In this document: piece by piece, positions 12,090 through 34,886 of the stretch
How positions within the stretch are numbered: position 1 is the stretch's first letter
Layout: every line of letters starts with the position of its first letter
Origin: Allosphingosinicella sp.
GTDB taxonomy: Bacteria; Pseudomonadota; Alphaproteobacteria; Sphingomonadales; Sphingomonadaceae
Assembly (NCBI GenBank): GCA_036273615.1
Contig: DASUHH010000032.1
Location: forward strand, 798 to 64,797
Direction: 5' to 3'
Length of the DNA stretch: 64,000 nt
The notes under the pieces: model-generated
The model's input: the letters and a program-made list of their open reading frames with translations, nothing else
Told to the model about the DNA's origin: nothing
Databases searched by the model: none
Made by a program: the position numbers and the translations under genes

Positions 12090-12995
12090 ATGATCCCCGT
12101 GCATCGCATCGAGCCGCCGGGGGAGTGGCGCGCCTCCGGCCGCAACCCATTTTCCTTCTTTTCGGGTGTCCTTTTGCGTCTGGCCTTCACCTCCCCAGTG
12201 CCGCCCGAAAGCCCGCAGCCGCTGCTCCGCCGGCGCGCCACCGCGCTCATATTGGCGTTGATCGTCACCTTCCTGATGATCCTCGCCTTGTGGAGCCTGA
12301 ACGGCCGGGCGCCGGAGCGGCCGCGGCTCAAGGGCGCGACCATGCTCGACTTCAAGCCTGACGCCGACAATGAAGATGCCAGCGTGAAGCAGCAGCCGAC
12401 GAAAGCGCAGCCGCGCCAGGAGAAGCAGCCGACCCCGATCAAGCCGGCGCCACCGCCGCCGCGGCCTTCGCCGCTGCCGGTGGTGCACCCTTATTATATC
12501 CCCCTCACCAAGGACGAGAACGATTCGGCCGACATCGGCAGGATGGCCCATGCCGGTCCGCGCAGCGGGAGCGCCCAGGCCTCGATCGGCGCACCGGGGG
12601 ATTCGAGGCCGATCGGCACCGCGCCCGACGGCTCGCCGCTCTACGCGGCCGAATGGTATCGCGAGCCGACCGACGCCGAGCTCGATTTCTATCTCCCGAA
12701 GAACAGGAACATCCAGGGCTCCGGCTTCATCGCGTGCAAGACCATCGATCATCATCATGTCGACGATTGCGTCGAGCTTGGAAGCGTGCCCTCGCAAAGC
12801 CATCTCGCCAGTGCCGTCCGCCAGGCCGCGTGGCAATTCCTGGTCCGGGCGCCAAGGCTCGGCGGCAAGGAGCTGGTCGGGACCTGGGTCCGCATCCGCA
12901 TCGACTACGACATCCGCTACAAGGCCGAGGACAGGACCGACCGATCGGACGAGCCGCCGAAGCAGCCGGCCGATTCCACTTACATACCTTATTGA
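12090..12995 (+). CDS. TonB-like protein (TM anchor, Pro-rich linker, TonB C-terminal-like domain); start uncertain
   Basis: One TM helix, KPAPPPPRPSP linker, and C-terminal AVRQAAWQFLVRAPR..G..WVRIRIDY. Confidence 0.6.
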   Translation: MIPVHRIEPPGEWRASGRNPFSFFSGVLLRLAFTSPVPPESPQPLLRRRATALILALIVTFLMILALWSLNGRAPERPRLKGATMLDFKPDADNEDASVKQQPTKAQPRQEKQPTPIKPAPPPPRPSPLPVVHPYYIPLTKDENDSADIGRMAHAGPRSGSAQASIGAPGDSRPIGTAPDGSPLYAAEWYREPTDAELDFYLPKNRNIQGSGFIACKTIDHHHVDDCVELGSVPSQSHLASAVRQAAWQFLVRAPRLGGKELVGTWVRIRIDYDIRYKAEDRTDRSDEPPKQPADSTYIPY

Positions 12996-13071
12996 ACCGG
13001 CCCGTTCGCAGGGGCTTTCCCACGGCTACATGATAGCGCTACCATGCACGCAAGGAGAGGGAGCGGCCGGC

Positions 13072-15702
13072 ATGGAAAAAAGCATCGCAACCTGGATGAT
13101 CGCGGCGGCCGGCGCCCTGCTCGCGACCGGCGCCGCCGGAGCCCCGGACAAGCCGAAGCCGCTTTACATGAACCCCGCGCTTCCGGCGGAGGCGCGCGCC
13201 GCCGATCTCGTCCACCGCATGACGCTCCCCGAAAAGGCGTCGCAGCTCGTCAACCATGCCCGCGCCATCCCGCGCCTCGGCGTTCCCGCCTACGATTGGT
13301 GGAGCGAGGCGCTGCACGGCGTCGCGGTCGACGGCACCACCGAATATCCCGAGCCGATCGGCCTCGCCGCCACCTTCGACGCGCCCGGCATCCGCCAGAT
13401 GGCCGAGCAGATCGGCGTCGAAGGCCGGATCAGGCACGAGGCGGACGTCCGCGCCGGCCATAGCTCGACGATGGAGGGGCTCGATTTCTGGGCGCCCAAC
13501 GTCAACATCTTCCGCGATCCGCGCTGGGGCCGCGGCCAGGAAACCTATGGCGAGGACCCGTTCCTCACCGGCCGCATGGCCGTCGCCTACGTCACCGGAA
13601 TGCAGGGCGACGACCCGCTCCACTATCGCGCCATCTCCACGCCCAAGCATTTCGCCGTCCATAGCGGGCCCGAGCCGACCCGCCATTTCGCCGACATCGA
13701 CGTCAGCAGGCACGATATCGAGGACACCTACCTCCCCGCCTTCCGCGCCGCGATCACCGAGGGCCATGCCGGGTCGATCATGTGCGCCTATAATGGCGTG
13801 AAGGGCGAGCCGGCCTGCGCCAATCAGTTCCTGCTGCAGCACACGCTCCGCGGCGCGTGGCGCTTCGGGGGCTATGTGGTCTCCGATTGCGGCGCGGTGC
13901 ACGACATATTCGAAGGCCATCATTACCGGCCGAGCCAGCCCCAGGCCTCCGCCATCTCGCTCGCGCGCGGCATGGACAATGAATGCATCACCTTCGGCGA
14001 CGTCACCGGCGACGCCGACTACAAGCCCTATATCGAGGCGGTCCATGAGGGCGTGCTCGCCGAGAGCGCGATCGACACCGCCCTCATCCGCCTGTTCACC
14101 GCGCGAATCCGGCTCGGCATGTTCGATCCGCCGTCGATGGCCCCCTATTCGCGGATCGACCCGCATGAGCTCGACAGCCCCGCCCACCGGCAATGGGCCT
14201 TGCACCTCGCCGAGGAATCGATGGTGCTTCTCAAGAATGACGGCGTGCTGCCGCTGAAGGGGGCGAAGCGAATCGCGATCGTCGGCCCGCTCGCCGACCA
14301 GAAAGCCGTTTTGCTCGGCAATTATAACGGCCAGCCGACGCGTACCGTCACGATCCTGGAAGGAATGAAGGCCGCCTTTCCAGGCGCGACCATCACCTAC
14401 GTCCCGGGAACGCAATTCCTTTCCGACGCCGGCGCGGTGGTGCCCGCCTCGTCGCTTGCCACGGCGGACGGGAAGCCCGGCCTTCGCGCGGACTATCGCG
14501 CGGGCGAGCACGAGGATTCGGGCGCGGCCCCGATCGTCTCCCGGGTCGAGGCGGGCGTCGGCCTCGACGCGGACAATGTCCCGTCCGCCCTGCGCGGCAA
14601 GCCGTTCAACACAAGCTGGACCGGAACGCTGACCGCGCCCGCGAGCGGCGACTATCGGCTCGGAATCAAGGCTGCGGGCTTCGCTCATGTCCGCGTTGAC
14701 GGCCGGATGCTCGTCCAGACCTATGGCGGCACCAGGCTCGGCCGGATTCATCTGGAGAAGGGCCAGCCAGTCAGCCTCGAGGTCGCCTATCGCACCAGGC
14801 CCGGCGGTGCGCCGGCGGCGCAGCTCATCTGGGCGCCGGTGAACGACGTGCCCGATCCCGCCGCCGCCGCCGCCGCGCGGGACGCCGACGTCGTGGTCGC
14901 GGTCGTCGGGATCAGCAGCACGCTCGAGGGCGAGGAGATGCCGGTGAGCGAGCCCGGCTTCCAGGGCGGGGACCGGACCAGCCTCGACATCCCGGCGCCC
15001 GAGGAAGCGCTCGTCCGCGCCGTCGCCGCCGCCGGCAAGCCGCTTGTCGTCGTGCTGACGAGCGGCAGCGCGCTCGCCGCCCGATGGGAAAAGGCGCATG
15101 CCGATGCGATCCTCGAAGCCTGGTATCCGGGCGAGGAAGGCGGAAGCGCGGTCGCGAACATCCTGAGCGGTGCGGCCAACCCGTCGGGCCGCCTTCCGGT
15201 CACCTTCTACGAGGATGTGAGCCAGCTTCCCAATTTCGAGGATTATTCGATGCGGGGACGGACCTACCGCTATTTCGCCGGCACCCCGCTCTGGCCGTTC
15301 GGCTACGGCCTCAGCTACACGAGCTTCACTTATGGCGACCTCGCTTTGCCCAAGGCGCCGATCCGCGCCGGAGCGCCGCTCCACGCCTCGGTCCGCGTGA
15401 CCAATAGCGGCCAGGCGGCGGGCGACGAAGTGGTCCAGCTCTACCTAAAATTCCCGAATGTGCCCGGCGCCCCGATCCGCGCGCTGCGCGGCTTCCGCCG
15501 CATCCACCTCGCCCCGGGCGCGAGCGAGACGGTGACCTTCGACCTCACGCCGCGCGACCTTTCCATGGTCAACACGGCCGGCGACATCATCGTCCCCGCG
15601 GGCCGCTACAACGTCTCGATCGGCGGCGGCCAGCCCGGCTCCGGCCTGCCCGCCGCCACCGGCGCCTTCTCCTTGACCGGCCAGGCGACGCTGCCGGAAT
15701 AA
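13072..15702 (+). CDS. GH3 beta-glucosidase/xylosidase with PA14 insertion and FnIII-like C-terminus
   Basis: WWSEALHG, RDPRWGRGQETYGEDP, KHFAVH, GYVVSDC nucleophile, EGEE acid/base region, SGRLPVTFY and FGYGLSYT. Confidence 0.95.
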   Translation: MEKSIATWMIAAAGALLATGAAGAPDKPKPLYMNPALPAEARAADLVHRMTLPEKASQLVNHARAIPRLGVPAYDWWSEALHGVAVDGTTEYPEPIGLAATFDAPGIRQMAEQIGVEGRIRHEADVRAGHSSTMEGLDFWAPNVNIFRDPRWGRGQETYGEDPFLTGRMAVAYVTGMQGDDPLHYRAISTPKHFAVHSGPEPTRHFADIDVSRHDIEDTYLPAFRAAITEGHAGSIMCAYNGVKGEPACANQFLLQHTLRGAWRFGGYVVSDCGAVHDIFEGHHYRPSQPQASAISLARGMDNECITFGDVTGDADYKPYIEAVHEGVLAESAIDTALIRLFTARIRLGMFDPPSMAPYSRIDPHELDSPAHRQWALHLAEESMVLLKNDGVLPLKGAKRIAIVGPLADQKAVLLGNYNGQPTRTVTILEGMKAAFPGATITYVPGTQFLSDAGAVVPASSLATADGKPGLRADYRAGEHEDSGAAPIVSRVEAGVGLDADNVPSALRGKPFNTSWTGTLTAPASGDYRLGIKAAGFAHVRVDGRMLVQTYGGTRLGRIHLEKGQPVSLEVAYRTRPGGAPAAQLIWAPVNDVPDPAAAAAARDADVVVAVVGISSTLEGEEMPVSEPGFQGGDRTSLDIPAPEEALVRAVAAAGKPLVVVLTSGSALAARWEKAHADAILEAWYPGEEGGSAVANILSGAANPSGRLPVTFYEDVSQLPNFEDYSMRGRTYRYFAGTPLWPFGYGLSYTSFTYGDLALPKAPIRAGAPLHASVRVTNSGQAAGDEVVQLYLKFPNVPGAPIRALRGFRRIHLAPGASETVTFDLTPRDLSMVNTAGDIIVPAGRYNVSIGGGQPGSGLPAATGAFSLTGQATLPE

Positions 15703-15897: not shown

Positions 15898-16001
15898 TAG
15901 AGCGGCCTGCGATTAACTTGAATCGCAGGCCGCTCTATAAGTCCTTGTTGTCGCGTTGCTTTTTGCGAAAGCCGGTACCCACCTTTTCGCGCAACGCTCT
16001 A
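15898..16001. mobile_element. TA-flanked palindromic MITE-like element (CIR/BRU-RS-like)
   Basis: TAGAGCG...CGCTCTA termini and a perfect 17-bp internal palindrome, TAGAGCGGCCTGCGATT/AATCGCAGGCCGCTCTA. Confidence 0.8.
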
Positions 16002-17840
16002 AGGCCGCGGCATCATTGCGACGATCTCCTCCGCGGCGTCGGGGGTCAGATGGCCGTAGTCGAAATGGATGGGCTGGCCGGTGGCGGTGAGCATGAAGCA
16101 GGGCCGCGCCGGCGGGCATTCGGCGCGATAGGCGGAGAAATAGCGCCCGCCGGCGCCGCGAACGATCGCCGCCATCGCGCGGTCGAGCCGCTCCCGCGCC
16201 GGCACGCGGCCGTCGTCATAGATGCGGCGGTCGTGCGCCAGCATGGACCTCGCCAGCAATTCGGGGACGGACGGCTGATATTCGACGACCGGGCCGACCA
16301 CCAGCACGTCGATCCCGGCGGCGCGGAGGCCGGCGACCACCGGCCGCAATTTCTCCGCTTCGTCCGGCCACCAGCGCGAGGCGAGGATCACCCCGTCGAC
16401 ATGCTCCTTCCTCGCCAGATCCAGCGCCTCGAGCGCCCGGCGGTCGCATCGCCCGCCTCCGCCGATGCTGCCGCCCTTCGGCCGGCAGGCCGTCCGCATC
16501 GAGACGAGGAAGTGGATGTCGGGGAAGCGCTCGACCAGGGCCGTCCAATATTGGGCGGCATGGCTGTCGCCGGCGAGCAGGACGTTGCGCCGGCCGGGGA
16601 CGATTCGAAGGCAGGTCGTCTGCCTCGGAATGCCGGCCGGCCGGCAGGACGGATCATAGGGGTCGACCGGAATCCTGAGCTTGTGCGGAACGGCGAGGAT
16701 GCGCGCCACGGCGGGCGGCAGCCGGCGCACATGCGGCGGATGGTGGATCGCCGCATAGGCAAGGCCCGCCGTCGCCAGGCAGGCGAGCGCTCCGCCGGCG
16801 AGCACCGGCAGCGGCGGTCCCTTGCGCAGCCGCCGGCGCAGCGGACGCTCGACCGCGAAGAAGGAGAAAGCGGCGAGCGCGAAGGACAGGGCGATCAGCA
16901 GCACCTGCGTGCCCGGCGTCAGCTCGAAGCGGACGAACAGGCGCCAGAAGGCAAGGATCGGCCAATGCCAGAGATAGAGCGAATAAGAGAGCCGGCCGAT
17001 CGCCCGCATCGGCGCGATTGCGAGCAGCCGGCCGGCCGCGCTCCCCTCCGCCGCGACGAGCAGGATGGCGGTCGCGACCGTCGGCGGCAGAGCCGCGGGA
17101 AAGGGCGAAACCCACGCCCCGCCGAAGACGATCGACAGGAGCAGGAGGACGAGCGCGAGCGCGGCCAACAGCGCGCGCACCCGCCGGCCGCGCGGCGCCG
17201 GCACCAGGCCCGCCGCGGCGAGGCCGCCGAGGCCGAGCTCCCAGAAACGCGCCGGCAGCAGGTAGAAGGCCGCGCTCGGCTTCGCCGCGGCGAAGGCGGC
17301 GGCGAGCGCCAAAGAAGCGATGCTCGCCGCCGCGATCAGGGCCGTCCGCTTGTACCGCCCCCGCAGCGGGACGAGCAGCAGCAAGGGATAGAGAAGATAG
17401 AATTGCTCCTCGACGCCGAGCGACCAGCTGTGGAGCAGAGGCTGGACCTCGGACAGCGGCGCGAAATAGGGGTTGTTGCGCCAGAAGAAGAGGTTGGAGA
17501 GGAAGAGCGGAGCCGCCACGCCGGATCCGCGCAGAGTCGCGAGCTCGGACGGAAAGGCCATGACCAGCCAGGCCGCGAGCACGCAAAGGGTGACGAAGAG
17601 CAGGGCCGGAACGATCCGCGCCACCCGCCGCCGCCAGAAGGCCCAGAGCGAGAAATGCCCCTCCGCCATCTCGCGCAGCAGGATCCCGGTGATCAGGAAG
17701 CCCGACAGGGTGAAGAAGATGTCGACGCCGAGGAACCCGCCGCCGAACGGCGGCACGCCGGCATGGAAGAGGATGACCGCGAGCACCGCCACCGCCCGCA
17801 GCCCCTCGATGTCGCCCCGATAGCGCGGTCCGCCGTCCAT
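15999..17840 (-). CDS. acyltransferase family 3 protein with C-terminal SGNH domain (OafA/OatA-like)
   Basis: YRGDIEGLRAVAV, GGFLGVDIFFTLSGFLIT, HSWSLGVEEQFY, SYSLYLWHWP, then GDSHA and D..HLT. Confidence 0.93.
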   Translation of the reverse strand: MDGGPRYRGDIEGLRAVAVLAVILFHAGVPPFGGGFLGVDIFFTLSGFLITGILLREMAEGHFSLWAFWRRRVARIVPALLFVTLCVLAAWLVMAFPSELATLRGSGVAAPLFLSNLFFWRNNPYFAPLSEVQPLLHSWSLGVEEQFYLLYPLLLLVPLRGRYKRTALIAAASIASLALAAAFAAAKPSAAFYLLPARFWELGLGGLAAAGLVPAPRGRRVRALLAALALVLLLLSIVFGGAWVSPFPAALPPTVATAILLVAAEGSAAGRLLAIAPMRAIGRLSYSLYLWHWPILAFWRLFVRFELTPGTQVLLIALSFALAAFSFFAVERPLRRRLRKGPPLPVLAGGALACLATAGLAYAAIHHPPHVRRLPPAVARILAVPHKLRIPVDPYDPSCRPAGIPRQTTCLRIVPGRRNVLLAGDSHAAQYWTALVERFPDIHFLVSMRTACRPKGGSIGGGGRCDRRALEALDLARKEHVDGVILASRWWPDEAEKLRPVVAGLRAAGIDVLVVGPVVEYQPSVPELLARSMLAHDRRIYDDGRVPARERLDRAMAAIVRGAGGRYFSAYRAECPPARPCFMLTATGQPIHFDYGHLTPDAAEEIVAMMPRP

Positions 17841-17851
17841 CGGATGCGGTG

Positions 17852-18538
17852 CTAGCCGTGCGCGGCCCCCCGGGAAAGGCCGTCCCGCGGCCGAATCCCC
17901 GCCGGCATCATCGCGCCGAGGGCGAGCGCCACCGACTGGGGGGAGTAGATTGCGGCCAGGGCCTCGTCGACGCTTCGCTCGACCAGCAGCCGCGCCTCGC
18001 GGCGCGCGGGCGCGCGGCGCGGCGGCAGCAAGGGGCGGAGCGCGAACTCGGCCTGGAGCCGCTCGACGAAGGCCCGGGTGCCGCTCGACCGGATCTCGAG
18101 CCGGCCGCCGCCGCGAATCCCGGCCTGGCGGACGATGCGGGCCAATCGCTCGCGCGCCGGCTCGGCGATGCCGCGTTCGTGCAAGGCGGCGAGCCACGGC
18201 CAGCCGGGTCCCTCGCGCATCACCAAAGTGACGAGCCGGCGATAATCGTCGGACCCGAACAGAGCGGCGCAGGCCAGAGCATGGCGCCGGACCGAGGCGC
18301 GCAGCGGCAAGGCCGGCGGCGGCGCTGCGAACGGCGCGGCGAGCGTCCGGATCGATGCCGTGGCGGCGAGCCGGCCGAGCGTCTCGACATCCTCATACCA
18401 ATGGACGGCCAGCGCCGGCGCCACGCCCGCCGCCCCGGCAATGGCGGCGAGCCCCGGCCGCTCGGCCCCCGGCTCGGTCAGCAGCCGGAAGGCGGCCCGC
18501 AGCAATCGCGCCGCCGCCTCCGCACCGATCTCTCGCAC
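17852..18538 (-). CDS. divergent TetR/AcrR-like protein
   Basis: Weak HTH (AAIAGAAGVAPALAVHWY) and a C-terminus resembling the TetR ligand domain. GTG start lies 1 nt after the receptor stop. Confidence 0.55.
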   Translation of the reverse strand: MREIGAEAAARLLRAAFRLLTEPGAERPGLAAIAGAAGVAPALAVHWYEDVETLGRLAATASIRTLAAPFAAPPPALPLRASVRRHALACAALFGSDDYRRLVTLVMREGPGWPWLAALHERGIAEPARERLARIVRQAGIRGGGRLEIRSSGTRAFVERLQAEFALRPLLPPRRAPARREARLLVERSVDEALAAIYSPQSVALALGAMMPAGIRPRDGLSRGAAHG

Positions 18539-18539
18539 C

Positions 18540-21500
18540 CTAGAAATCCAAAGTGACGCCGGCGAAGACATATCGGCCGAGCGCATCGTAGGTCCCGGGG
18601 AAGGTGTTGCCGTTGCAATAGATGCCGGGGCAGGCGTTGATCACCGCGCTCGACCCGTTCGACCCGATGATCGGCGGCGCCTTGTCGAGCAGATTGTTGA
18701 CGCCGAGCCGGAAGCGATAATGGTCGCCGATCTTCGCGGTCAGAGCGAGGTCGAAATAGCTTTGCGCCGGGATACGCGCGTTGAACGGCGAGAAGGCGCC
18801 GCCGAGGCTCGCCTGGCTGCTTGCCCGGTCGATCCGCACCTGGCTGAAATAGCGCCATTGCAGCGACACGCCGATTCCGTCCGGCGCGTTCCAGGTGAGG
18901 CGCGCCTTGTGCCGCCATCTGGGGTTCGGCCCCGACAGGGTGCCGCCGCCCGAGCAGACCAGGCCGTAATAGCCCGCGCAATCGTAGGGCGCCGAGACGC
19001 CCGTGTCGGTGACGAGCTTGATGAGCCAGGTGCCGGTCATGTTGAAGACGAGCCCGCCCCAGCGGCCGAGCCCAGCCGCATAGCTTGCGCTGACATCGAC
19101 GCCGCGGGTCGAATTGCCGCCGATGTTGCGCGGCAGGTCGATGACGAAACCACCGGCCGAGCGCCACAAGGAGCCCGACGAATCGCGGTGGACGAGGCCG
19201 CAGAAGACCGGGTTCAGCGTCTGGTTGCAAACGTTGAGGATCGTGTCGGCGCCGACCCGCTGGATCGCGTTCCTGATCCGGATGTCGTAATAATCGACCG
19301 TGATCGCGAGCCGTGGGATGAAGCGCGGCTGCAGCACCACGCCGGCGGTCCAGGTGTCTGCGATCTCCGGCCGGAGCGTCGGAACCCCGCCCAACTTGCC
19401 GTTATACTGGCCGGCGGGATTGCCCGGCACGATCTGGCCGACGTGGAGGCCCTGGGCGAGGCAGCCGGTCTCGGCGGCGGTGATGGCATGGCCGCTGCAC
19501 GGATCGCTGTTGCCGTCGAGCGCGGTGACGACCGGGGCGAACAATTCCTGGATGTTGGGCGCGCGGACGGCGCGATTGTAGCTCGCCCGGAATCGGATAT
19601 CGCGCACCGGCGCGAAATCGCCGCCGATCTTCCAGGTGTCGGTCGAGAAACCGCGATCCTGCCCCGCAAGCGCATAGCGCGAATGGCGGTAGCCGGCCTC
19701 GAGCGACAGATTCTGGAAGAATCCGTTCTCGACGATCGGAACCCGCACCTCGCCGAACAATTCGCGCACGTCGAAGGCGCCGCTGACCGGAAGGATGGCC
19801 GCGCCGACCCCGGCAAGGTCGCTCGCCGGCAGCAAGGAATAAGCCGCGTCGGTCTGGAATTGCAGCGATTCCCTGCGATATTCGGCGCCGAGCGCGAGCC
19901 CGACCCCCTCCTCCGCCCAGGGTAAGCGGATGCCGTACTCGCCGAGCTTGCCCGTCAGCGACGCGCTGGCGACGCTCTCGCCGTTGACGCCGCGCTGGAA
20001 GCCGGGGGTCGAGAGATAGTCGATCGCCGCCTGGCTGACGGTGCCCGTCCCCCACACGTCGTAGGGCACGCAGGCCGGGTCGGCGCCGGTCAGCACCGAT
20101 CGGCAGACCGGGGCCGATCCCGGCGTCCCGGGCGCGACCTCGTGTCCGTTCAGCGCGCTGACCACGTCGAGCGCGTTCCTGAGCCGGGTGATCGAGAAAT
20201 CGTTGGACGAGATCAGGGAGAAATTGGTCCGGCCATATTGGTAATAAGCATCGTAGGACCAGGCCTTGCCGAGATCGCCCTTCATGCCCGCGACGATCCG
20301 GTAATCGTTGTGGCTGATGTCGGAGATGCGCGGCCCGCCCTCGACGTTGCGCCGCAATATCTGCGCGAAACCCTTATTATAGGCGGCGCCGGTGGTCGGA
20401 TCGATGAAGGTGAATGGCGTCGTGCAGGCGGGGTGGCCGCGCGCCGCGCAGTCGGTCGCGTCGGGCGCGGTGACCGTGCCCGGGAAGACGCCGCGCAGAT
20501 CGGGCGTCGTCAGCAGGTTCGCGTTGGCGCAGATCACCGCTTTCTGCTGCGCGCTCAGCAAGGGGTTGTCGCAATTGACCGCGAAGGTGTTGCCGAAATC
20601 GCCCGACGGCGCGATCTGGGCGACCGTGCGGTCGTCCATGAACATGCCCTCCATATAGGGGCGCAGGCTCTCGTTGATCTCGTAATTGGCGAAGAAACCG
20701 AGCGTGTAGCGCTCGTCCGGCCTTTGGTAATAATTGGTCGGCGCGAAATTGTAGCGCTGGAGGTTCTGGGTGAGGGTCCGGTTCGGGCCGACCTGGAACA
20801 GGGTCGAGGTGCCGCCCTGGAAGGCGATGACGGTCGCCGCCGGCGCGGTCAGCGATCCGCCGCAGATCGGGATTGCGGTCGTGTTCGCCGCCTGGGCGAC
20901 GCAGGCGCTGTAATCGCGCTTGTCCTGCGTCACCGCGTCGAGCCTGCGATAGGTCGCGTAAGCGACGACATGACCGCGCCCGTCGTCGAACGAGGCGCCG
21001 ATCTGGCCCGAAAGGTCGACCGTCCCGCCGTCCGCCACCGAACCGTGCGGATAGCCGAAGCCGCGCGCGTTGAGCGCACCGACCAGCAGATTTTCATTAT
21101 TGTCGTGCTGGTAGAAGCTGTACTGGCCGTCGATCCGGAACCCCTCGAAATTGGTGTCCATGATGAAGTTGACGACGCCGGCGACCGCATCGGCGCCATA
21201 GACGGACGAAGCGCCGCCGGTCAGCACGTCGACCCGCTGGATGAGGGTCGCCGGAATCGCATTGATGTCGGCCGCCGCCGAGCTCGGATCGCCCGGCACC
21301 AGCCGGCGATTGTCGATCAGCACCAGGGTCCGGTTCGAGCCGAGGTTGCGCAGGTTGAGCGTCGCAGTCCCGGTCGCGCCGTTGGCGAGGTTGCCGGCCT
21401 GCGAGGCGGTGACCTGCGGCAGGCTGTTGACCAGATCCTCGGCCCGGGTCGTGCCCGAAAGCGTGACCTCCTGGCTGTTGAGGACGGTGACCGGGCTGAC

Positions 21501-21713
21501 CGCGGTCAGATTGGGCTGCGGGATGCGCGATCCCGTGATGACGATCGTGGCCTGGTCGGCCGGCCGGGCGTTCGCCTCGGCCGGCGCCGGTGCCGTTCCG
21601 GCCGGCCCCTGCGGCGCCGCGTCGTTCTTCGGGTCCTGCGCCTCGGCGGCGCTGCCGGCGAGGAGCGCCCCGCACAGGAAGGTGGAGGCGAGCAGCCGAT
21701 GATGCGATCTCAT
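18540..21713 (-). CDS. TonB-dependent receptor
   Basis: Signal peptide, TonB box IVITGS, plug motif RVDVLTGGASSVYGADAVAGVVN, and terminal GRYVFAGVTLDF. Confidence 0.96.
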   Translation of the reverse strand: MRSHHRLLASTFLCGALLAGSAAEAQDPKNDAAPQGPAGTAPAPAEANARPADQATIVITGSRIPQPNLTAVSPVTVLNSQEVTLSGTTRAEDLVNSLPQVTASQAGNLANGATGTATLNLRNLGSNRTLVLIDNRRLVPGDPSSAAADINAIPATLIQRVDVLTGGASSVYGADAVAGVVNFIMDTNFEGFRIDGQYSFYQHDNNENLLVGALNARGFGYPHGSVADGGTVDLSGQIGASFDDGRGHVVAYATYRRLDAVTQDKRDYSACVAQAANTTAIPICGGSLTAPAATVIAFQGGTSTLFQVGPNRTLTQNLQRYNFAPTNYYQRPDERYTLGFFANYEINESLRPYMEGMFMDDRTVAQIAPSGDFGNTFAVNCDNPLLSAQQKAVICANANLLTTPDLRGVFPGTVTAPDATDCAARGHPACTTPFTFIDPTTGAAYNKGFAQILRRNVEGGPRISDISHNDYRIVAGMKGDLGKAWSYDAYYQYGRTNFSLISSNDFSITRLRNALDVVSALNGHEVAPGTPGSAPVCRSVLTGADPACVPYDVWGTGTVSQAAIDYLSTPGFQRGVNGESVASASLTGKLGEYGIRLPWAEEGVGLALGAEYRRESLQFQTDAAYSLLPASDLAGVGAAILPVSGAFDVRELFGEVRVPIVENGFFQNLSLEAGYRHSRYALAGQDRGFSTDTWKIGGDFAPVRDIRFRASYNRAVRAPNIQELFAPVVTALDGNSDPCSGHAITAAETGCLAQGLHVGQIVPGNPAGQYNGKLGGVPTLRPEIADTWTAGVVLQPRFIPRLAITVDYYDIRIRNAIQRVGADTILNVCNQTLNPVFCGLVHRDSSGSLWRSAGGFVIDLPRNIGGNSTRGVDVSASYAAGLGRWGGLVFNMTGTWLIKLVTDTGVSAPYDCAGYYGLVCSGGGTLSGPNPRWRHKARLTWNAPDGIGVSLQWRYFSQVRIDRASSQASLGGAFSPFNARIPAQSYFDLALTAKIGDHYRFRLGVNNLLDKAPPIIGSNGSSAVINACPGIYCNGNTFPGTYDALGRYVFAGVTLDF

Positions 21714-21844
21714 ATTTTCCCCTTTTGACGCCTTTCGCGGGCGAAGCCGAAAGCCGGCCGCGTCCGCACGCACCGGGCTTGCGCCGGGGAGCAAGGGGGT
21801 CCAAAACGCCGATCGAGGCATCGGAAAAACCGATAGCTTGTATC

Positions 21845-22102
21845 CCTCTCCCTTTGAGGGGATGCCACGCGACCAAGGCTCGTCCGGGGAGGAGTCAGCG
21901 CGGCATGGATACGGAGTCTTGGCGGCGAAGGAGCCTAGGCGCATTTGGGTGAGGGTGACAGACTCGGCGAAAATCCGCGAACGGTGTCACCCTCACCAAC
22001 TGCGCCTGAGCGGCGGAGCCGCCAAGGCTTCGTATCATGAGCCGCCTGGCCTCGTCCCCGGGACGAGACCTTAATGGCGGCTCATCCCATCCAAGGGGGA
22101 GA
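21845..22102. repeat. composite palindromic intergenic repeat, related to 60301-60427
   Basis: CTCTCCC..GAGGGGATG and CATCCC..AAGGGGGAGA ends, internal GAGGGTGACA/TGTCACCCTC stem, and about 78 bp matching the reverse complement of the 60.3 kb copy. Confidence 0.8.
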
Positions 22103-22123: not shown

Positions 22124-23020
22124 ATGAGCCGCGATCTTGAGGTCCGCCACTGCCGCATCCTGGTCGCGATCGACGACCATGGAGGCATCGCGTCGGCGGC
22201 GCGGGCGCTGGGGCTGGCGCAATCGACCGTCTCGGAGACCTTGCTCTCGCTCGAGCGCGTGGTCGGAACGCCGATCGTGCTCAGGCGCCCGGGCCGCGGG
22301 GCGGCGCTCAGCCCGGCGGCCGAGGCCCTGCTGCCGCACGCCCGCGCCCTGATCCTCGCGTCGGAGACCGCGCTCGCCGCCGTCTCCGCCAAGAGCCGGG
22401 GCATCGTCCGCCTCGGCGTCGTCGAATCGATCAGCTCGTTCCTGCTGCCCGGCCCGCTCGCCGCCTTCCGCCGCCACTGGCCGCGGGTCGAGGTACGGAT
22501 CGCGATCGGCCTCTGCGGCGACCTTCGAAAGCGAGTGGACCGGTTCGAGCTCGACGCCGCGCTCACCGTCGAGGGCGCCGAAGCCGCGGCCCAGCGCGAC
22601 GGCGCGCAAAGGCTCGGCCCGGCCGCCCTTCGCCTCGTCGTCTCGCCCGATCATGCGCTTCTCGGCGCGCCGGTCGGCCGGGCCGATCTTGGTTCGGCAA
22701 CCTTCCTGCTCGCCGACCCCGACGGCGCCTTCAACGCCCTGCTGCGCGGCTGGTTCACCGGCCGCGGCCTCGGCCCGCGCTTCGAATCGGCGGGCAGCGT
22801 CGACGGCGTCAAGCATGGCGTCCTCGACGGCGAGGCGATCGGAGTCCTCCCCTCCTACGCCGCCGACGACGCCCTCGCCGCCGGATCGCTCGCCGCCCTC
22901 ACGATGGCCGAGCCTTTGCCGCCGATCGGCCTGCTGCTCACCGTCGCCGAGCCGCTGCGCGAATCCTCGCCCCTCGCCAATCTGACCGCCGAGATCGCCG
23001 GCGCCTTCAACCGGCCCTGA
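22124..23020 (+). CDS. LysR-family transcriptional regulator
   Basis: HTH (GGIASAARALGLAQSTVS..L..LE..VG..IV.R) plus substrate-binding domain. Confidence 0.93.
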   Translation: MSRDLEVRHCRILVAIDDHGGIASAARALGLAQSTVSETLLSLERVVGTPIVLRRPGRGAALSPAAEALLPHARALILASETALAAVSAKSRGIVRLGVVESISSFLLPGPLAAFRRHWPRVEVRIAIGLCGDLRKRVDRFELDAALTVEGAEAAAQRDGAQRLGPAALRLVVSPDHALLGAPVGRADLGSATFLLADPDGAFNALLRGWFTGRGLGPRFESAGSVDGVKHGVLDGEAIGVLPSYAADDALAAGSLAALTMAEPLPPIGLLLTVAEPLRESSPLANLTAEIAGAFNRP

Positions 23021-25233: not shown

Positions 25234-26643
25234 TTAACGGCAAGCCGAGAGCGCGCTGCCTTTTCCGACCCGAAGCAGCGCCACCCCATGCGGCGCCACC
25301 GCGACGGACGCCTGGCCCGACGCCGGCACCTTCGCCCGCGTCCAGAGATCGCAGGCGGCGAATTCCCCCGCCTCCAGGCCGAGCGACGTCCACGGCACAT
25401 CGACCTGAAGCGGCGCCTCCGAGACGTTGAAGATCGCGACCGTGTCGATCCCGTCCGCCATCGGCCCCGAGACCCAGATCCGGACGCCCGCCGGAGCGTT
25501 CACCGGCGCGACCGGCCGATCCTTTCGCGACGCCTGGTCGAGCGCGATCACCTTCCGGTTGGTCAGCATCGCCCGCAGCCAGCCCGGCATCCCGGTCAGA
25601 TTGCCGCCGAGGATGAGCGGCGAGCGCGCGATCGCCCAAAGGGTGAAAGCCGTGCGCGTCTCATCCTCGGTCAGCCGCGCGTCGCGCGGATCGCCCCAGC
25701 CGGGATGCGGACGCAAGGACCCGAAAGGCAGCATGTCGGCATCGGGCCAGCGATCCGGTCCCGCGACCTTGTTCCACAAGGCGAGCCGGTCGAAGGCGGA
25801 GAGGATGCCGTTGGGGAATTCGGTGGCCGGATCGGGATGGGGGAAGGCCCAGCTGTCCCAGAGATCGTCGGAGATGCGCCACATCTGCGCCCATTTCGCC
25901 ATCGGTGCGAAATTGGCGAGCCGCGCCGGCCCCGGCGACAGGCTCAGCACCATCGGCCGCCCCGCCGCCTTGATGGCGCGGCCGATCTGGGCGATCTCGC
26001 TCGGCCGGTAGGGATGGTCGGCGATGCAGTCGACCTTGAGGAAATCGACCCCCCAGGCGGCATATTCCCGCAGCAGCGAATCGTACCAGGCCTGGCCGGC
26101 TTCGTTGTCGGCGACGCCGTAATTGCCTTGGTCCCACGGGCAGGTGGCGGCGCGGTCGGCGGCGTCGGCGGCGCGGAAAGGCGAGCCGGCGATCGGCAGG
26201 TTCGCCTCGACCGCCGCGCGCGGAATGCCGCGCACGATATGGATTCCGAACTTCAGCCCCAAAGCATGGGTCCAGTCGGCGATCGCCTTCAGGCCGTCGC
26301 CGTCGGCGGCCGAGGGAAATCGGCTCACCACCGGCTCCAGCCGGCCATAAGCGTCGAGCCGATAGCCCCGCGCCGCGACGTCGGCCCCGAGCGGATCGGC
26401 CATGTACCAGCCCTCGTCGATCACCGCATAGGACCAGCCGGCGCTTTTCATGCCGGCGAGGATGCGGACATTGGCCTTGAACGCCGCCTCGTCGACGGTG
26501 AAGCCATAGGCATCCCAGCTGTTCCAGCCCATGGGCGGCGCCGGCGCGACCGGCGCGGCCAGGGCGGCGGAGGCGAGGCCGATCGATGCAGCCAGCAAGG
26601 CCAGGGCCGCGCGAACCGGCTGCCGGTGAAAGACCGTCTTCAA
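25234..26643 (-). CDS. GH27 alpha-galactosidase/NAGA family glycoside hydrolase
   Basis: PPMGWNSW, VIDEGW, GLKFGI, WGVDFLKVDC, WRISDD, WPDADML and PLILG. TTG start inferred. Confidence 0.93.
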   Translation of the reverse strand: MKTVFHRQPVRAALALLAASIGLASAALAAPVAPAPPMGWNSWDAYGFTVDEAAFKANVRILAGMKSAGWSYAVIDEGWYMADPLGADVAARGYRLDAYGRLEPVVSRFPSAADGDGLKAIADWTHALGLKFGIHIVRGIPRAAVEANLPIAGSPFRAADAADRAATCPWDQGNYGVADNEAGQAWYDSLLREYAAWGVDFLKVDCIADHPYRPSEIAQIGRAIKAAGRPMVLSLSPGPARLANFAPMAKWAQMWRISDDLWDSWAFPHPDPATEFPNGILSAFDRLALWNKVAGPDRWPDADMLPFGSLRPHPGWGDPRDARLTEDETRTAFTLWAIARSPLILGGNLTGMPGWLRAMLTNRKVIALDQASRKDRPVAPVNAPAGVRIWVSGPMADGIDTVAIFNVSEAPLQVDVPWTSLGLEAGEFAACDLWTRAKVPASGQASVAVAPHGVALLRVGKGSALSACR

Positions 26644-26656
26644 GCCCCCTTCTCCC

Positions 26657-27727
26657 TCATTCCAGCCAGGTATCGATCGCGCGGCCGTTGCGGAAGGTCC
26701 CGATCCGGCGGACATCGCCCGCTTCCACCGCCACGGGGGCGTCGAGCGGCGCGAGGGTGAAGCCGGAGAAGAAAATGCCTCCGGGCTCGGGCCGCGCCTC
26801 GAGCACGCGCTCGGCGTCGAGCTCCAGCCGGATCCAGCGCGCGATCGCATTGGCCTCGCCGCTCCGCGTCACCAGAATCTCCACCGCGCCGCGCTCGGCG
26901 CTGCCGCGCGGCACCGCCGGAAGCGGGAAGCGGGCGACCGGCACCGGCTCCGACAGCAAAGCCACGCCCGGCGCGTCGATCGGCCGCCGGATCGAGGCCG
27001 GCACGAAATCGGCGAAATCCCGAAGGTCGAAGCCGGCGGCGGTTCCGATCCGGCCGAGCCGGTCATGATCGTCCCAGGCGGCGAGGGAAGCGACCAGGCC
27101 CACCGCCGCCGGTACCGACGCCGCATCCCCGGCGAGCAGCCGCTCGCGCGCGTCGTGGATCGCCGGCAGCGGATCGAAGCCGAGAAGCTCGTCGGCGAAG
27201 ATGTCGCAGAGCAGCAGGTCGGCCCGGCGCGGCAGATCCTCGCCGATCGCCACCTCGCGAGAATCCTTCGCGATCACCTTGATGCGATCGGCAAGCCCGT
27301 TCCGGCCGGCCAGCGCCCGCGCCATCGCCGCCGCCGCCTTGTTGGTCTCCGACGTCACCACCTCCGCCCCCGCCCGCGCCGCAATGAGGGCGAGCATGCC
27401 GGCGCCGGTGCCGATCTCGTAGACGAGCATTCCGGGCCGGATCGCCGCTCGCAGCGCCGCGTCCCAGGCGGCGTTGCGGCGCGCATCGTTCATCATCGGC
27501 ACATGATAGCCGGGGAGCAGGGAGCCGAGCAGCCGGCGGGCGCGCATCCGCGTCGCCGGATCGCCGGGCGCGGCGGCGAGCGCGCGCCGCGCCAGCGCCA
27601 CCGCCCGCTCCGGATCCTTCGCCATCGACGCCGCCTCGGCAAGCCCGACCAGCTTGAACCCGGCCTCGGGATCGTCGCGGACCGCAGCCTCGAACCGCGC
27701 CGCAAGCGCGTCCAGATCCAGTCCCAC
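26657..27727 (-). CDS. class I SAM-dependent methyltransferase resembling protein arginine methyltransferases, with short TPR-like N-terminus
   Basis: HVPMMNDARRNAAW, EIGTGAGML SAM motif, DLLLCDIF.DELLG and WIRLELD. GTG start after GAAGGAGG. Confidence 0.8.
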   Translation of the reverse strand: MGLDLDALAARFEAAVRDDPEAGFKLVGLAEAASMAKDPERAVALARRALAAAPGDPATRMRARRLLGSLLPGYHVPMMNDARRNAAWDAALRAAIRPGMLVYEIGTGAGMLALIAARAGAEVVTSETNKAAAAMARALAGRNGLADRIKVIAKDSREVAIGEDLPRRADLLLCDIFADELLGFDPLPAIHDARERLLAGDAASVPAAVGLVASLAAWDDHDRLGRIGTAAGFDLRDFADFVPASIRRPIDAPGVALLSEPVPVARFPLPAVPRGSAERGAVEILVTRSGEANAIARWIRLELDAERVLEARPEPGGIFFSGFTLAPLDAPVAVEAGDVRRIGTFRNGRAIDTWLE

Positions 27728-27872
27728 GCGCCCCTCCTTCCTACGCAAGCCTATCCGGTCCCGCCGCCGGGCGGAAGCCGCGCGGACGATGCATTTCGTC
27801 GATTTTCGGCCGCCCCGATCTGGATCGGAACGCGGATCCGTGGCAAAAGGAAACCGGGGAAGGGCGGGGACG

Positions 27873-28058
27873 ATGAGCGAATATGGAATCCTGATCGAGA
27901 CGAGCGACGGCCTGCGCACGCGCCGCCGGCTGCCTTATCCGAGCGATGCCGCGGTCATTGCCGACTGGCAGCATCACGGCACCGACGGCTTCGTCGAGAT
28001 CGTCAGCGAGGGCCGCGTCGTCGGCCGCTGGGACGGCAGGCAGGCGAACGCCGCCTAG
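27873..28058 (+). CDS. small hypothetical protein (61 aa)
   Basis: ATG after a purine-rich leader; plausible alpha/beta composition; lies in an intergenic gap. Confidence 0.5.
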   Translation: MSEYGILIETSDGLRTRRRLPYPSDAAVIADWQHHGTDGFVEIVSEGRVVGRWDGRQANAA

Positions 28059-31953: not shown

Positions 31954-33030
31954 GTGACTCGCCCCGATGCCCGGCCCGGCCGCGGCGCGCCCGAGAATCG
32001 GACGCCGACGCGCTTCAACCTGCCCGAACGCGAGGCGGACGGAGACTGGCTCGACGCGCGCGAGGAATTGGACGGCGAATTGCAGCCGCTTCGAACGACG
32101 GTGACGGTCGAGAAGCCGAAGACGATCATCACCCGCAATGCCTCGCCCGACATCGGCTTCGACCGCTCGATCAACCCCTATCGCGGCTGCGAGCATGGCT
32201 GCATCTATTGCTTCGCCCGGCCGACCCACGCCTATCACGACCTCTCGCCCGGTCTCGATTTCGAGACGAAATTGTTCGCCAAGCCCGACGCCGCCAAATT
32301 GCTGCGCGAGGAGCTGGCGAAACCCGGCTATCGCGTCCGGCCGATGGCGATGGGGACCAACACCGATCCCTATCAGCCGATCGAGGGCAAATGGCGGATC
32401 ACCCGGTCGGTGCTGCAGGTGCTCGCCGAGACGAAGCATCCGGTCACCATCACCACCAAGTCGGACCGCGTGCTTCGCGACCTCGACATCCTCGCGGCGA
32501 TGGCGGCGGAGGATCTCGCCTCGGTCGCGCTTTCGGTCACGTCGCTGACCCCGGAGATCTCGCGAACGCTCGAGCCGCGGGCGCCGGCGGCGCGCAAAAG
32601 GCTGGCCGCGGTCAAGACGCTGAACGAGGCGGGCGTGCCGGCCCTGGTCTCGATCGCGCCGGTCATTCCCGGCATCACCGACCATGAACTGGAGGCGATC
32701 GTCGAGGCCGCCGCCGAGGCCGGCGCCAGGGCCGCCTTCTTCCTGCCGGTCCGCCTCCCCTTCGAGGTCGCGCCCCTGTTCCGAGCCTGGCTCGACGAGC
32801 ATTTCCCCGACCGCGCGGGCAAGGTCATGAACATCATCCGCGCCATGCGCGGCGGCCGCGACAACGATCCCAACTGGTTCACCCGAATGCAGGGCTTCGG
32901 TCCCTGGGCCGAGCTGATGCGCGTCCGCTTCGAAGTGGCGAAGAAGAAATACGGGCTGAACGGAGAGCGGCGGAAGCTGAGAACCGACCTGTTCGTTCCG
33001 CCTTCGGGGCCGCAGCTCAGGCTGCTGTAG
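31954..33030 (+). CDS. PA0069/Rv2578c-family radical SAM protein (spore photoproduct lyase-like)
   Basis: SINPYRGCEHGCIYCFARP (CxxxCxxC), GTNTDPYQP, TITTKS and LEPRAP. Confidence 0.95.
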   Translation: MTRPDARPGRGAPENRTPTRFNLPEREADGDWLDAREELDGELQPLRTTVTVEKPKTIITRNASPDIGFDRSINPYRGCEHGCIYCFARPTHAYHDLSPGLDFETKLFAKPDAAKLLREELAKPGYRVRPMAMGTNTDPYQPIEGKWRITRSVLQVLAETKHPVTITTKSDRVLRDLDILAAMAAEDLASVALSVTSLTPEISRTLEPRAPAARKRLAAVKTLNEAGVPALVSIAPVIPGITDHELEAIVEAAAEAGARAAFFLPVRLPFEVAPLFRAWLDEHFPDRAGKVMNIIRAMRGGRDNDPNWFTRMQGFGPWAELMRVRFEVAKKKYGLNGERRKLRTDLFVPPSGPQLRLL

Positions 33031-33200: not shown

Positions 33201-34850
33201 TTATTTCGCCGGAGCCGGGGCCTCCGCCGCAGCGACGGACACGTCGTCGCCCCCCAGCCGGTAATCCCGATACTGCTCCCTCAGCGCCGTCTTGAGCAAT
33301 TTCCCAGTCGCCGTGTGCGGCAGGCCGTCGACGAACAGGATTTCGTCCGGCAGCCACCATTTGGCGACCTGGCCGGCAAGAAAGGCGCGGATCGCCTCGG
33401 CCGTGACCTCCGCCCCCTCCTTCTTCACCACCAGCAGCAGTGGCCGCTCGTCCCATTTGGGGTGGCGCACGCCAACCGCCGCCGCTTCCGCGACGCCGGG
33501 GCAGCCGATCGCCGCATTTTCGAGTGCGATCGAGCTGATCCATTCGCCGCCCGACTTGATCACGTCCTTGGCGCGGTCGGTGATCTCGAGGATTCCATTG
33601 GGGTGGAGGATGGCGACGTCGCCGGTGTCGAACCAGCTCTCCCCGTCGACCGCCTCGCCGCTCTCGTCCTGGAAATAGCGGCGGACGACCCAGGGCCCGC
33701 GCGCCTGCAGCCGGCCGGCGCTCCGCCCGTCGCGCGGCAGGACGTTCCCCTCGTCGTCGACCGTGCGCAACTCGACGCCGAACGGCACCCGCCCCTGCCG
33801 GCACATATAATCGAGCCTCTGCTCGGCATCGAGCAGGCCCCAGTCGCCGGTCGGGGCGCCGACCGTTCCGAGCGGCGACATCTCGGTCATCCCCCAGGCA
33901 TGGCAGACGCTGACGCCGCGATCGGTGAAATAGGCGATCATCGCCCGCGGCGCCGCCGATCCGCCGATATGGACGGTGTGGAGCGCGCCGAGATCGCCGC
34001 CGGTCGCCTCGACATGGCCCATCAGGGCGAGCCAGACGGTCGGCACGCCGGCGGTGTGGGTCACCCCTTCCTCATGCATCAGGTCGCACATGATCTGCGG
34101 CGCGTAATCGGTTGAATAAACGAGCTTTCCGCCGACCATCGCAGTCGAGAAGGGAAGCCCCCAGCCGCCGGCGTGGAACATCGGCACGACCGGAAGCACG
34201 ACCGAGCGGGCCGACAGGCCGAACACGTCGGGCGAGATCTGCATGATCGCGTGGAGGATGGTCGAACGATGCTCGTAGAGCACGCCCTTGGGATTGCCGG
34301 TGGTGCCGCTCGTATAGCAGAGCATCATCGGCTCGCGCTCGTCGCCCTCGACCCAGGCATAATCGTCGCTTTCGGCGGCGATCAGGGCGTCAAACGAGAG
34401 ATCGCCTGTCCCGAGCGAAGTCGAGGGGTCGAAGCAGATATAATGCTCGATCGAATTCCAGCGCGATTTCAGCCGCTCGACCAGGGGCGCGAAGATACGG
34501 TCGTAGAACAGCACCCGGTCCCCGGCATGGTTGCCGATATAGACGAGCTGGTCGTCGAACAGCCGGGTGTTGAGCGTGTGGAGCACGCCGCCCATGCCGA
34601 TCGCGCCGTACCAGGCGACGAGATGGCGGCCATGGTTCATCGCCAGCGTGCCGATCCGGTCGCCCTTGCGCACCCCCAGCCGCTCCAGCGCCCGCGCCAG
34701 CCGCCGCGCGTCGCGCGCGATCCCGGCCCAGTCGGTGCGCGTCTTGCGGCCGCCTTCCAGCGACACGATCTCCCGCGCCCCATGCTCGCGCTCGGCATGG
34801 TCGAGGATCCGCATCACCCTCAGCGGCCAGTCCTGCATCCCTCCAAGCAT
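33201..34850 (-). CDS. medium/long-chain fatty-acid-CoA ligase (AlkK/DmdB-like)
   Basis: [39 protein letters not shown] and TGK. Confidence 0.95.
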
Positions 34851-34886
34851 CGGCGCCTCCTTCAATGGTGGCGGTATCCTGCGAAC

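Follow-up and report, generated by a model that had tools for sequence, protein, structure and literature searches.

Protein arginine methyltransferases (PRMTs) are commonly portrayed as eukaryotic regulators that act on chromatin and on RNA-binding proteins. What, then, is a bacterial protein that resembles them, and what does it methylate? The question is raised by a gene at positions 26657-27727 (minus strand) of a 64,000-nucleotide stretch of Allosphingosinicella sp. DNA (GenBank assembly GCA_036273615.1, contig DASUHH010000032.1, positions 798 to 64,797), which we call the window. An earlier examination of the letters without database searches (the sequence-only reading) had described the gene product as similar to eukaryotic PRMT7 and PRMT9. 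We found that the protein belongs to a bacterial clade, class A, in which the arginine-specific catalytic residues are swapped, that this clade is related to a larger and canonical bacterial family, class B, and that class A genes repeatedly lie in clusters for lasso-peptide biosynthesis. Our preferred reading, to which we give a probability of roughly 0.55, is that the window protein is not a canonical arginine methyltransferase but an active methyltransferase for a peptide or protein, with its ancestry in lasso clusters.

Sequence and fold place the window protein with PRMT7 and PRMT9

A single-sequence phmmer search of the PDB returned mouse PRMT7 (E = 9e-29), Trypanosoma brucei PRMT7 (TbPRMT7, 3e-17) and PRMT9 (about 1e-15), with PRMT6, PRMT2, CARM1 and PRMT1 likewise matching, whereas PrmA, the methyltransferase of ribosomal protein L11, reached just 5e-4 over 90 residues. 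With a 26-sequence profile the values became 2.6e-52 for PRMT7, about 1e-41 for TbPRMT7, 6.5e-39 for PRMT9 and 3e-20 for PRMT1, and PrmA was not among the 60 matches listed. The profile alignment to PRMT9 starts in the tetratricopeptide repeat (TPR) region and runs through the beta-barrel.

The AlphaFold2 (AF2) model, computed from an alignment of 26 homologues (pLDDT 89.4, pTM 0.85), consists of N-terminal helices, a Rossmann domain and an all-beta C-terminus. Its best 50 Foldseek matches in the PDB were all PRMTs. PRMT9 came first (8rbk; E = 3.6e-24, TMq 0.78, 384 columns including the TPR region), followed by TbPRMT7 (TMq/TMt 0.69/0.73) and mouse PRMT7, and matches over 300-330 columns comprised PRMT7, PRMT9, PRMT2, PRMT3 and PRMT1. 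The comparison of structures thus points away from PrmA and from any methyltransferase lacking the barrel. The similarity to PRMTs far exceeds what chance would give. Sequence and fold both identify the window protein as a true homologue of the PRMT7/PRMT9 type, as the sequence-only reading had proposed.

Identity with PrmA was rejected. In addition to the PDB value of 5e-4, the match to the Pfam PrmA family (PF06325) is weak and partial (28 bits, E = 2e-6) and covers residues 91-183, which form the Rossmann core. NCBIfam PrmA equivalogs scored 15-24 bits against cutoffs of 183-327, and a scan of the window protein brought no NCBIfam model near its cutoff. The name "50S ribosomal protein L11 methyltransferase", which NCBI gives to several homologues, and the weak PF06325 match are explained by the class I Rossmann core for binding S-adenosylmethionine (SAM) that both protein types share. 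Unlike the window protein, PrmA carries an N-terminal L11-binding domain and has neither the beta-barrel nor the PRMT N-terminal helix, and the similarity extends over about 90 residues. The IMG labels of the homologues are "type II protein arginine methyltransferase" or "PRMT7", and also type III PRMT. Both automatic names, that of NCBI and those of IMG, are unsafe for class A.

The domain order, from TPR to Rossmann fold to beta-barrel, is that of PRMT9 (8rbk, 6pdm). The N-terminal TPR-like domain (residues 1-70; 27518-27727; this and all following features of the gene are on the minus strand) forms four helices in the AF2 model (residues 5-15, 22-35, 39-52 and 57-70), which make two hairpins. 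Its match to TPR_14 is weak (E = 0.002, 19 bits, under the Pfam cutoff of 23.5). Positions 13-70 of the profile pair with the TPR segment that directly precedes the catalytic core in PRMT9 (8rbk), and in class B the homologous region gives strong matches to consensus TPR proteins.

Next comes the PRMT N-terminal helix motif YHVPMMNDARRNAAWDAAL (residues 74-92; 27452-27508). This helix, YHVPMMNDARRN, aligns to YADMLHDKDRN of PRMT7 and to FHYAMMNDEERN of TbPRMT7. Conservation in class A was assessed over 26 homologues with 42-90% identity, and in this set H75, M78, D81 and R84, the counterparts of PRMT residues in contact with SAM, are invariant, as is M79. Motif I, YEIGTGAGMLALIAARAG (residues 103-120, containing EIGTGAG), aligns to motif I of PRMT7 and PRMT9. 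Together with the post-I acidic residue E127 the SAM-binding segment EIGTGAGMLALIAARAG spans 27344-27427; G106, G108 and G110 are invariant and E127 is at least 90% conserved. The C-terminal PRMT beta-barrel (residues 198-356; 26660-27136) is all beta from residue 198 in the AF2 model, is matched as such by Foldseek and includes WIRLELD at residues 298-304. At the position of the dimerisation arm, the insertion of residues 219-245 contains only two short helices (221-225 and 236-241). The helix, the loop discussed below, WIRLELD and the TPR-like segment are all present where the sequence-only reading had located them.

Among solved structures, PRMT7 (mouse 4c4a; T. brucei 4m36/4m38) is the best match by sequence, with a very similar [FY]H..MMND..RN helix, and PRMT9 is the best match by structure, sharing the H..M.ND..RN helix, motif I and a K.S.E motif at an identity of about 20%. 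TbPRMT7, a type III enzyme, is comparable in being a single-module protein of about 340-390 amino acids (TM about 0.7). The window protein has one module, whereas PRMT9 carries three TPRs and, in addition, a second (pseudo)catalytic module.

Arginine-specific catalytic residues are replaced throughout class A

In characterised PRMTs, the two glutamates of the double-E loop are required for arginine methylation. The corresponding loop of class A reads C-D175-I-F-x-D-x-L-L-x-F184-[DE]-P and is aligned to the PRMT7 double-E segment TELFDTELIGEG; the HMMER alignment places it against LITELFDTELIGEGALP of PRMT7. In the window protein this region is DLLLCDIFADELLGFDP (residues 170-186), and we delimit the loop equivalent as LLCDIFADELLGFDPLP (residues 172-188; 27164-27214), with D175 standing for the first glutamate and F184 for the second. 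D175, I176, F177 and P186 do not vary, and F184 is kept in at least 90% of the sequences; the first position is an invariant Asp and the second is Phe or Leu. The window protein does not have the canonical double-E loop, and the replacement is fixed across class A. The AF2 confidence has its minimum in this loop, at residues 178-182.

The second catalytic element, the THW loop, is replaced as well. Its equivalent in the window protein, EARPEPGGIFFS (residues 310-321; 26765-26800), aligns to STSPSEETCWEQ of PRMT9 and follows the class A consensus E-A-R-P-E-P-G-x-x-F-F-S. E310, A311 and P313 are invariant, and E314, G316 and F320 are at least 90% conserved. The segment PEPGGIFFS of the window protein holds neither Trp nor His at the place where PRMT9 has TCW. 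PRMT9 also keeps the double-E segment TETVDAGLFGEG. PRMT7, which methylates arginine in RXR motifs, differs from the window clade in the same way, since it keeps E144 and E153 (mouse numbering) and a Trp-containing THW-equivalent loop; the clade in turn has an N-terminal TPR-like domain.

The sequence-only reading had suggested that the double-E glutamates appear as Asp or shifted and that no THW loop is visible. The missing THW loop is real, with FFS conserved across class A, and the Asp is the invariant D175. The idea of a shifted second glutamate, which would fall on D185, was rejected: among wider class A representatives F184 is followed by R, E, D, G, T or F, and this position is not conserved. 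That the substrate may differ, also suggested at the time, gains strength from the clade-fixed loss of both glutamates and of THW.

To judge from these alignments, class A is a derived branch in which SAM binding has been kept and the substrate pocket rebuilt and then fixed. Because the replacement residues are themselves strongly conserved, the pattern argues for a new specificity rather than for decay. Class A can in this respect be regarded as a natural experiment in re-specifying a PRMT pocket.

Class A branches from a large family of canonical bacterial TPR-PRMTs

A homologue was taken from each of 80 genome loci, and the 71 distinct full-length sequences fell into two classes upon alignment. 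Class A, with the D...F loop and FFS, comes mostly from Alphaproteobacteria and in some cases from Acidobacteriota. Class B, found in Azospirillum, Reyranella, Pseudanabaena, Flavobacteriaceae, Micromonosporaceae, actinomycetes, myxobacteria and others, has double-E loops of the type SEILDAGLLGEG (SE....GE) together with SHW, RHW, THW or TCW. In a 23-sequence alignment of class B, E190, E199 and W335 are invariant. The class B profile matched PRMT9 in the PDB at 1.9e-98 (333 bits, over TPR and core), PRMT7 at 2e-88 and PRMT1 at about 1e-43. Class B is the immediate neighbour of the window protein (30-40% identity, equal length and architecture), from which it differs by the intact E190/E199/W335 and by the long N-terminal extensions of many members. 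Class B is represented by loci L029-L077 of our set; examples are Azospirillum picis (L062:5896-7002), Pseudanabaena (L032:5929-7041) and Flavobacteriaceae (L058:5872-6984).

The statement of the sequence-only reading that PRMTs are mainly eukaryotic did not hold. Among 1.84 billion representative proteins, 1,296 clusters (50% identity) match at E<=1e-30, in line with the IMG labels and with an earlier comparative-genomics account (PMC3417536). About a dozen of the best 148 of these 1,296 clusters have the class A loop and about 125 the canonical one, and over half of these 148 representatives exceed 420 amino acids and carry N-terminal extensions. The top-scoring representative, P0121 (727 amino acids), contains two stretches that match the class A profile; it may be a tandem or fused form, which would recall the two modules of PRMT7 and PRMT9.

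A neighbour-joining distance tree recovers class A as monophyletic, with a subgroup of class B as its sister. We conclude that class A branches from the larger, canonical class B family of TPR-PRMTs, the nearest relative that eukaryotic PRMT9 and PRMT7 have among prokaryotes. Class B is also a candidate for the prokaryotic source of both. As a large bacterial family with PRMT9-like architecture and an intact catalytic apparatus, it offers a concrete prokaryotic origin for PRMT7 and PRMT9 as well as simple single-module models. No bacterial member was present among the PDB matches of either class profile or of the AF2 model.

Bacterial peptide methylases of the PRMT type, encoded with peptide dioxygenases in operons for secondary metabolites, were described by Aravind and co-workers, who proposed that eukaryotic PRMTs derive from bacterial peptide methylases of such operons (PMC3417536). 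This comparative-genomics statement was all that our literature search returned on characterised bacterial PRMT7/9 homologues or PRMT-type lasso tailoring. Our data agree with it and add the PRMT9-like TPR-PRMT architecture in bacteria, the subclade with a rebuilt pocket and the linkage to kinase-type lasso clusters.

Class A genes recur in lasso-peptide clusters

In some loci, asparagine-synthase-like, sulfotransferase, 2-oxoglutarate (2OG) oxygenase and ABC-transporter genes recurred near the methyltransferase. Gene tables of three loci and NCBIfam scans identified these neighbours as lasso-peptide clusters of the HPr-kinase type. They include a lasso cyclase (NF033535, 301 bits), a lasso PqqD chaperone and a lasso B2 protease (73 bits against a cutoff of 33), and further an HprK-related kinase, NTP_transf_5, sulfotransferases and an Asp/Asn beta-hydroxylase. 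By tblastn, 10 of 25 class A loci have a homologue of the lasso cyclase within 6 kb, as against 1 of 46 class B loci (Fisher P = 6e-5).

The class A lasso loci show at least four distinct gene orders, and in two of these the methyltransferase gene is nested between core genes. The order in L089 is cyclase C, methyltransferase, precursor, B1, B2, kinase and NTP_transf_5, and in L025/L026 it is B2, methyltransferase and B1. Lasso clusters with a nested PRMT-fold methyltransferase are located at L089:8019-14399, L087:10001-17774, L025:1-10631, L017:5986-12935 and L006:4822-13092; their hosts are Stellaceae, Rhizomicrobium, Pseudolabrys, Bryobacteraceae and other metagenome-assembled genomes (MAGs). 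Lasso-linked members occur on all deep class A branches and also include a member of the sister group, the class B locus L079. Since linked members are found on all deep branches and in the sister group, the association looks ancestral.

Candidate precursors are small open reading frames (ORFs) with a [YW]xxPx[LFA] leader motif, typically YxxPxL, and a C-terminal Ser. We place them at L089:11248-11412, L087:15676-15828, L018:6924-7091, the 3' part of L006:11752-12090 and an ORF ending at L025:4176. The L089 candidate, ...QPWHAPEFFLVDVEATE/GGLKPLGPDHGQNSMS, would be split after ATE, with Thr at -2, Gly1, Asp9 and a C-terminal Ser. The candidates agree in this with kinase-type lasso peptides known from Firmicutes and Sphingobium (PMC8498205). 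Only Gly, Asp, Ser and Ala are common to all candidate cores; Arg and Lys are missing from the cores of L087, L006 and L018, and His from that of L027. The methyl acceptor might be a core side chain that is not the same in every cluster, it might be found among the conserved basic residues that immediately precede the leader motif, or it might lie on a protein that the peptide targets.

Known lasso tailoring enzymes comprise the C-terminal O-methyltransferases StspM and that of lassomycin, the HprK-type kinases ThcoK and SyanK, and the hydroxylase CanE (PMC8498205). The relatives of the window gene hold the position of an accessory enzyme in kinase-type clusters like those known from Sphingobium yanoikuyae. 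They are unlike the known lasso methyltransferases, which are O-methyltransferases of unrelated subfamilies, and the window copy itself lies outside any cluster. In the papers that our literature search returned, no PRMT-fold enzyme was reported to tailor lasso peptides. The swapped arginine-specific residues, the retained SAM binding and the repeated embedding in lasso clusters together suggest a tailoring reaction that is undescribed for lasso peptides.

The lasso context of the relatives is not visible from the window alone. The nearest relative of the window protein, from an Allosphingosinicella MAG (90% identity), has an NTP_transf_5 gene and a PqqD-domain gene 6-8 kb downstream of the methyltransferase gene. 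The Sphingomonadales subgroup to which the window belongs has lost the adjacency to lasso genes.

Proposed function and alternative explanations

Because the SAM contacts are kept and the double-E and THW elements are replaced, the window protein would bind SAM through the retained contact residues and most likely would not perform canonical omega-N-methylation of arginine. Its ancestral role may have been that of a peptide-directed methyltransferase, which either tailored the lasso precursor or product or methylated a protein connected with the peptide, because deep-branch and sister members are embedded in HPr-kinase-type lasso clusters. Such clusters contain cyclase C, the PqqD chaperone B1, the protease B2, an HprK-like kinase and the precursor, often together with a sulfotransferase, a nucleotidyltransferase or a 2OG oxygenase. 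The TPR-like domain probably recognises the substrate. The stand-alone window copy might act on a lasso precursor whose gene lies elsewhere in the genome, or on some unrelated protein.

Several points weigh against this reading. Activity and substrate both rest on comparison, the geometry of the rebuilt pocket is read from alignments only, and the tree is a simple distance tree without support values. Our literature search brought up no experiments on bacterial proteins of either class. The candidate cores share so few residue types that their sequences do not point to a target residue. In the 64-kb window, tblastn with cyclase, PqqD, B2, kinase and NTP_transf_5 queries found no lasso genes, and 15 of the 25 class A loci have no cyclase within 6 kb, including the whole Sphingomonadales subgroup of the window. 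The function of this particular copy may have shifted away from lasso peptides.

Somewhat further reaching, we tentatively propose, with the odds against it, that the clade arose from canonical bacterial TPR-PRMTs and that its pocket was rebuilt (E to D, E to F, THW to FFS) for a new modification of HPr-kinase-type lasso peptides. This would be a new tailoring chemistry for RiPPs, peptides that are made by the ribosome and modified after translation, and bacterial peptide-modifying TPR-PRMTs would be the direct prokaryotic source of PRMT9 and PRMT7. The stakes rise if the clade indeed installs a new RiPP modification, or if a rigorous phylogeny nests PRMT9 and PRMT7 in the bacterial TPR-PRMTs.

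The window protein could instead be a genuine protein arginine methyltransferase, for instance a PRMT7-like type III enzyme forming monomethylarginine, in which D175 together with D179, E180 or D185 holds the guanidinium group. The nearest solved relatives are all arginine methyltransferases, the loop of the window protein is still acidic at these four residues, and IMG assigns type II or III PRMT automatically. Some candidate precursors have a conserved Arg or Lys just before YxxPxL and some cores contain Arg or Lys, while those of L087, L006 and L018 have neither. We nevertheless consider this explanation unlikely: both double-E glutamates are replaced clade-wide and kept in the sister clades, the wider clade has no conserved second acidic position (R, E, D, G, T or F follows F184), and the Trp of THW is replaced.

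An improbable explanation, which would account for the stand-alone copies, is self-immunity or resistance. The enzyme would then methylate a cellular protein that is targeted by the lasso peptide, in the manner of resistance methyltransferases from antibiotic clusters. Clustered and orphan copies do occur within one well-conserved clade, no possible methyl-acceptor residue type is common to all candidate cores, and a TPR-like domain is suited to protein-protein recognition. The proposal is purely inferential, and most characterised extra enzymes of lasso clusters modify the precursor peptide itself (PMC8498205).

Loss of the canonical glutamates and of THW, and an aromatic residue at the position of the second glutamate as in the C-terminal PRMT7 module (LLPWHNL), would also be seen in a catalytically dead scaffold or regulator, comparable to the C-terminal pseudo-modules of PRMT7 and PRMT9 or to the T. 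brucei PRMT1 prozyme. We regard this as very improbable, given that motif I, the post-I Glu, H75, M78, D81 and R84 are invariant or nearly so at 42-90% identity, that the strong conservation of the replaced loop residues points to a new function rather than decay, and that no paralogous active partner adjoins the gene.

Finally, PrmA, or a small-molecule or sugar methyltransferase working with the adjacent glycosidase GH27, is effectively refuted despite the weak Pfam match, the NCBI name and the 13-nucleotide distance to GH27, as the match is limited to the Rossmann core and far weaker than those to PRMTs, NCBIfam scores are far under their cutoffs, beta-barrel and TPR domains are not PrmA features, and the GH27 adjacency occurs in one near-identical relative only.

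The gene and its neighbourhood

The methyltransferase gene is complete and encodes 356 amino acids plus stop. Translation starts at an internal GTG (27727) within the ORF 26657-27919 (minus strand), with a strong ribosome-binding site, GAAGGAGGGG, read from the sequence at 27731-27740 (minus strand), 3 nucleotides upstream of the GTG. The database entry P0001 is the identical 356-amino-acid protein, and homologues span 351-369 amino acids. The stop codon TGA occupies 26657-26659. The sequence has a G+C content of 70%.

A gap of 13 nucleotides separates this stop codon from the TTG start (26643) of a secreted GH27 alpha-galactosidase (25234-26643, minus strand, co-oriented and downstream), which has a signal peptide and Melibiase_2 and Melibiase_C domains. 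No terminator-like site was seen in the gap, and the promoter and terminator scan was uninformative. The distance given in the sequence-only reading is correct, and a conserved linkage was not found: GH27 adjacency was seen only in the 90%-identical Allosphingosinicella relative, and the loci of other homologues are without GH27. All-against-all clustering of the ORFs neighbouring the homologues yielded no GH27 cluster and no universally conserved partner gene. A functional link to GH27 was rejected, as adjacency is limited to this one MAG and distant homologues have unrelated neighbours. The methyltransferase gene is probably co-transcribed with an unrelated GH27 gene, which is probably not its functional partner.

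Past GH27, the downstream order is a small lipoprotein-like ORF, GFA, an AI-2E transporter, LysR, a TonB-dependent receptor and an AT3-SGNH acyltransferase. Upstream lie a divergent 61-amino-acid ORF, two ORFs without known identity and TetR. The Pfam scan of the window neighbours identified only the TonB-dependent receptor, LysR, AT3-SGNH, GH3, PilZ, the radical SAM protein and the AMP-binding enzyme. Gene order is common to the window and the 90%-identical relative, save for an inserted block in the window that consists of LysR (22124-23020, plus strand) and a TonB-dependent receptor ORF of 1,134 amino acids (18540-21944, minus strand). Past the AT3-SGNH acyltransferase (15999-18197), the relative has the NTP_transf_5 and PqqD-domain genes, where the window has a GH3/PA14 glycosidase (12550-15702).

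In alphaproteobacterial MAGs, an M28-family peptidase gene (about 760 amino acids; L004:3695-5998, L005:3725-6004) ends within 3 nucleotides of the class A methyltransferase start or overlaps it. A link to this peptidase was set aside, as the overlap is confined to one syntenic MAG group (L004, L014, L015, L021), which represents a single lineage. In L087, a PA/M28/TFR_dimer peptidase lies 2.5 kb upstream of the methyltransferase.

The 61-amino-acid ORF, MSEYGILIETSDGLRTRRRLPYPSDAAVIADWQHHGTDGFVEIVSEGRVVGRWDGRQANAA (27873-28058, plus strand), is divergent from the methyltransferase gene and 145 nucleotides upstream of it; it is kept with 84% identity in the Allosphingosinicella relative and has no Pfam match. 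Further upstream, at 4-7 kb, a radical SAM protein (31954-33030, plus strand) and an AMP-binding, acyl-CoA-synthetase-like enzyme (33201-34865, minus strand) are also kept in the close relative.

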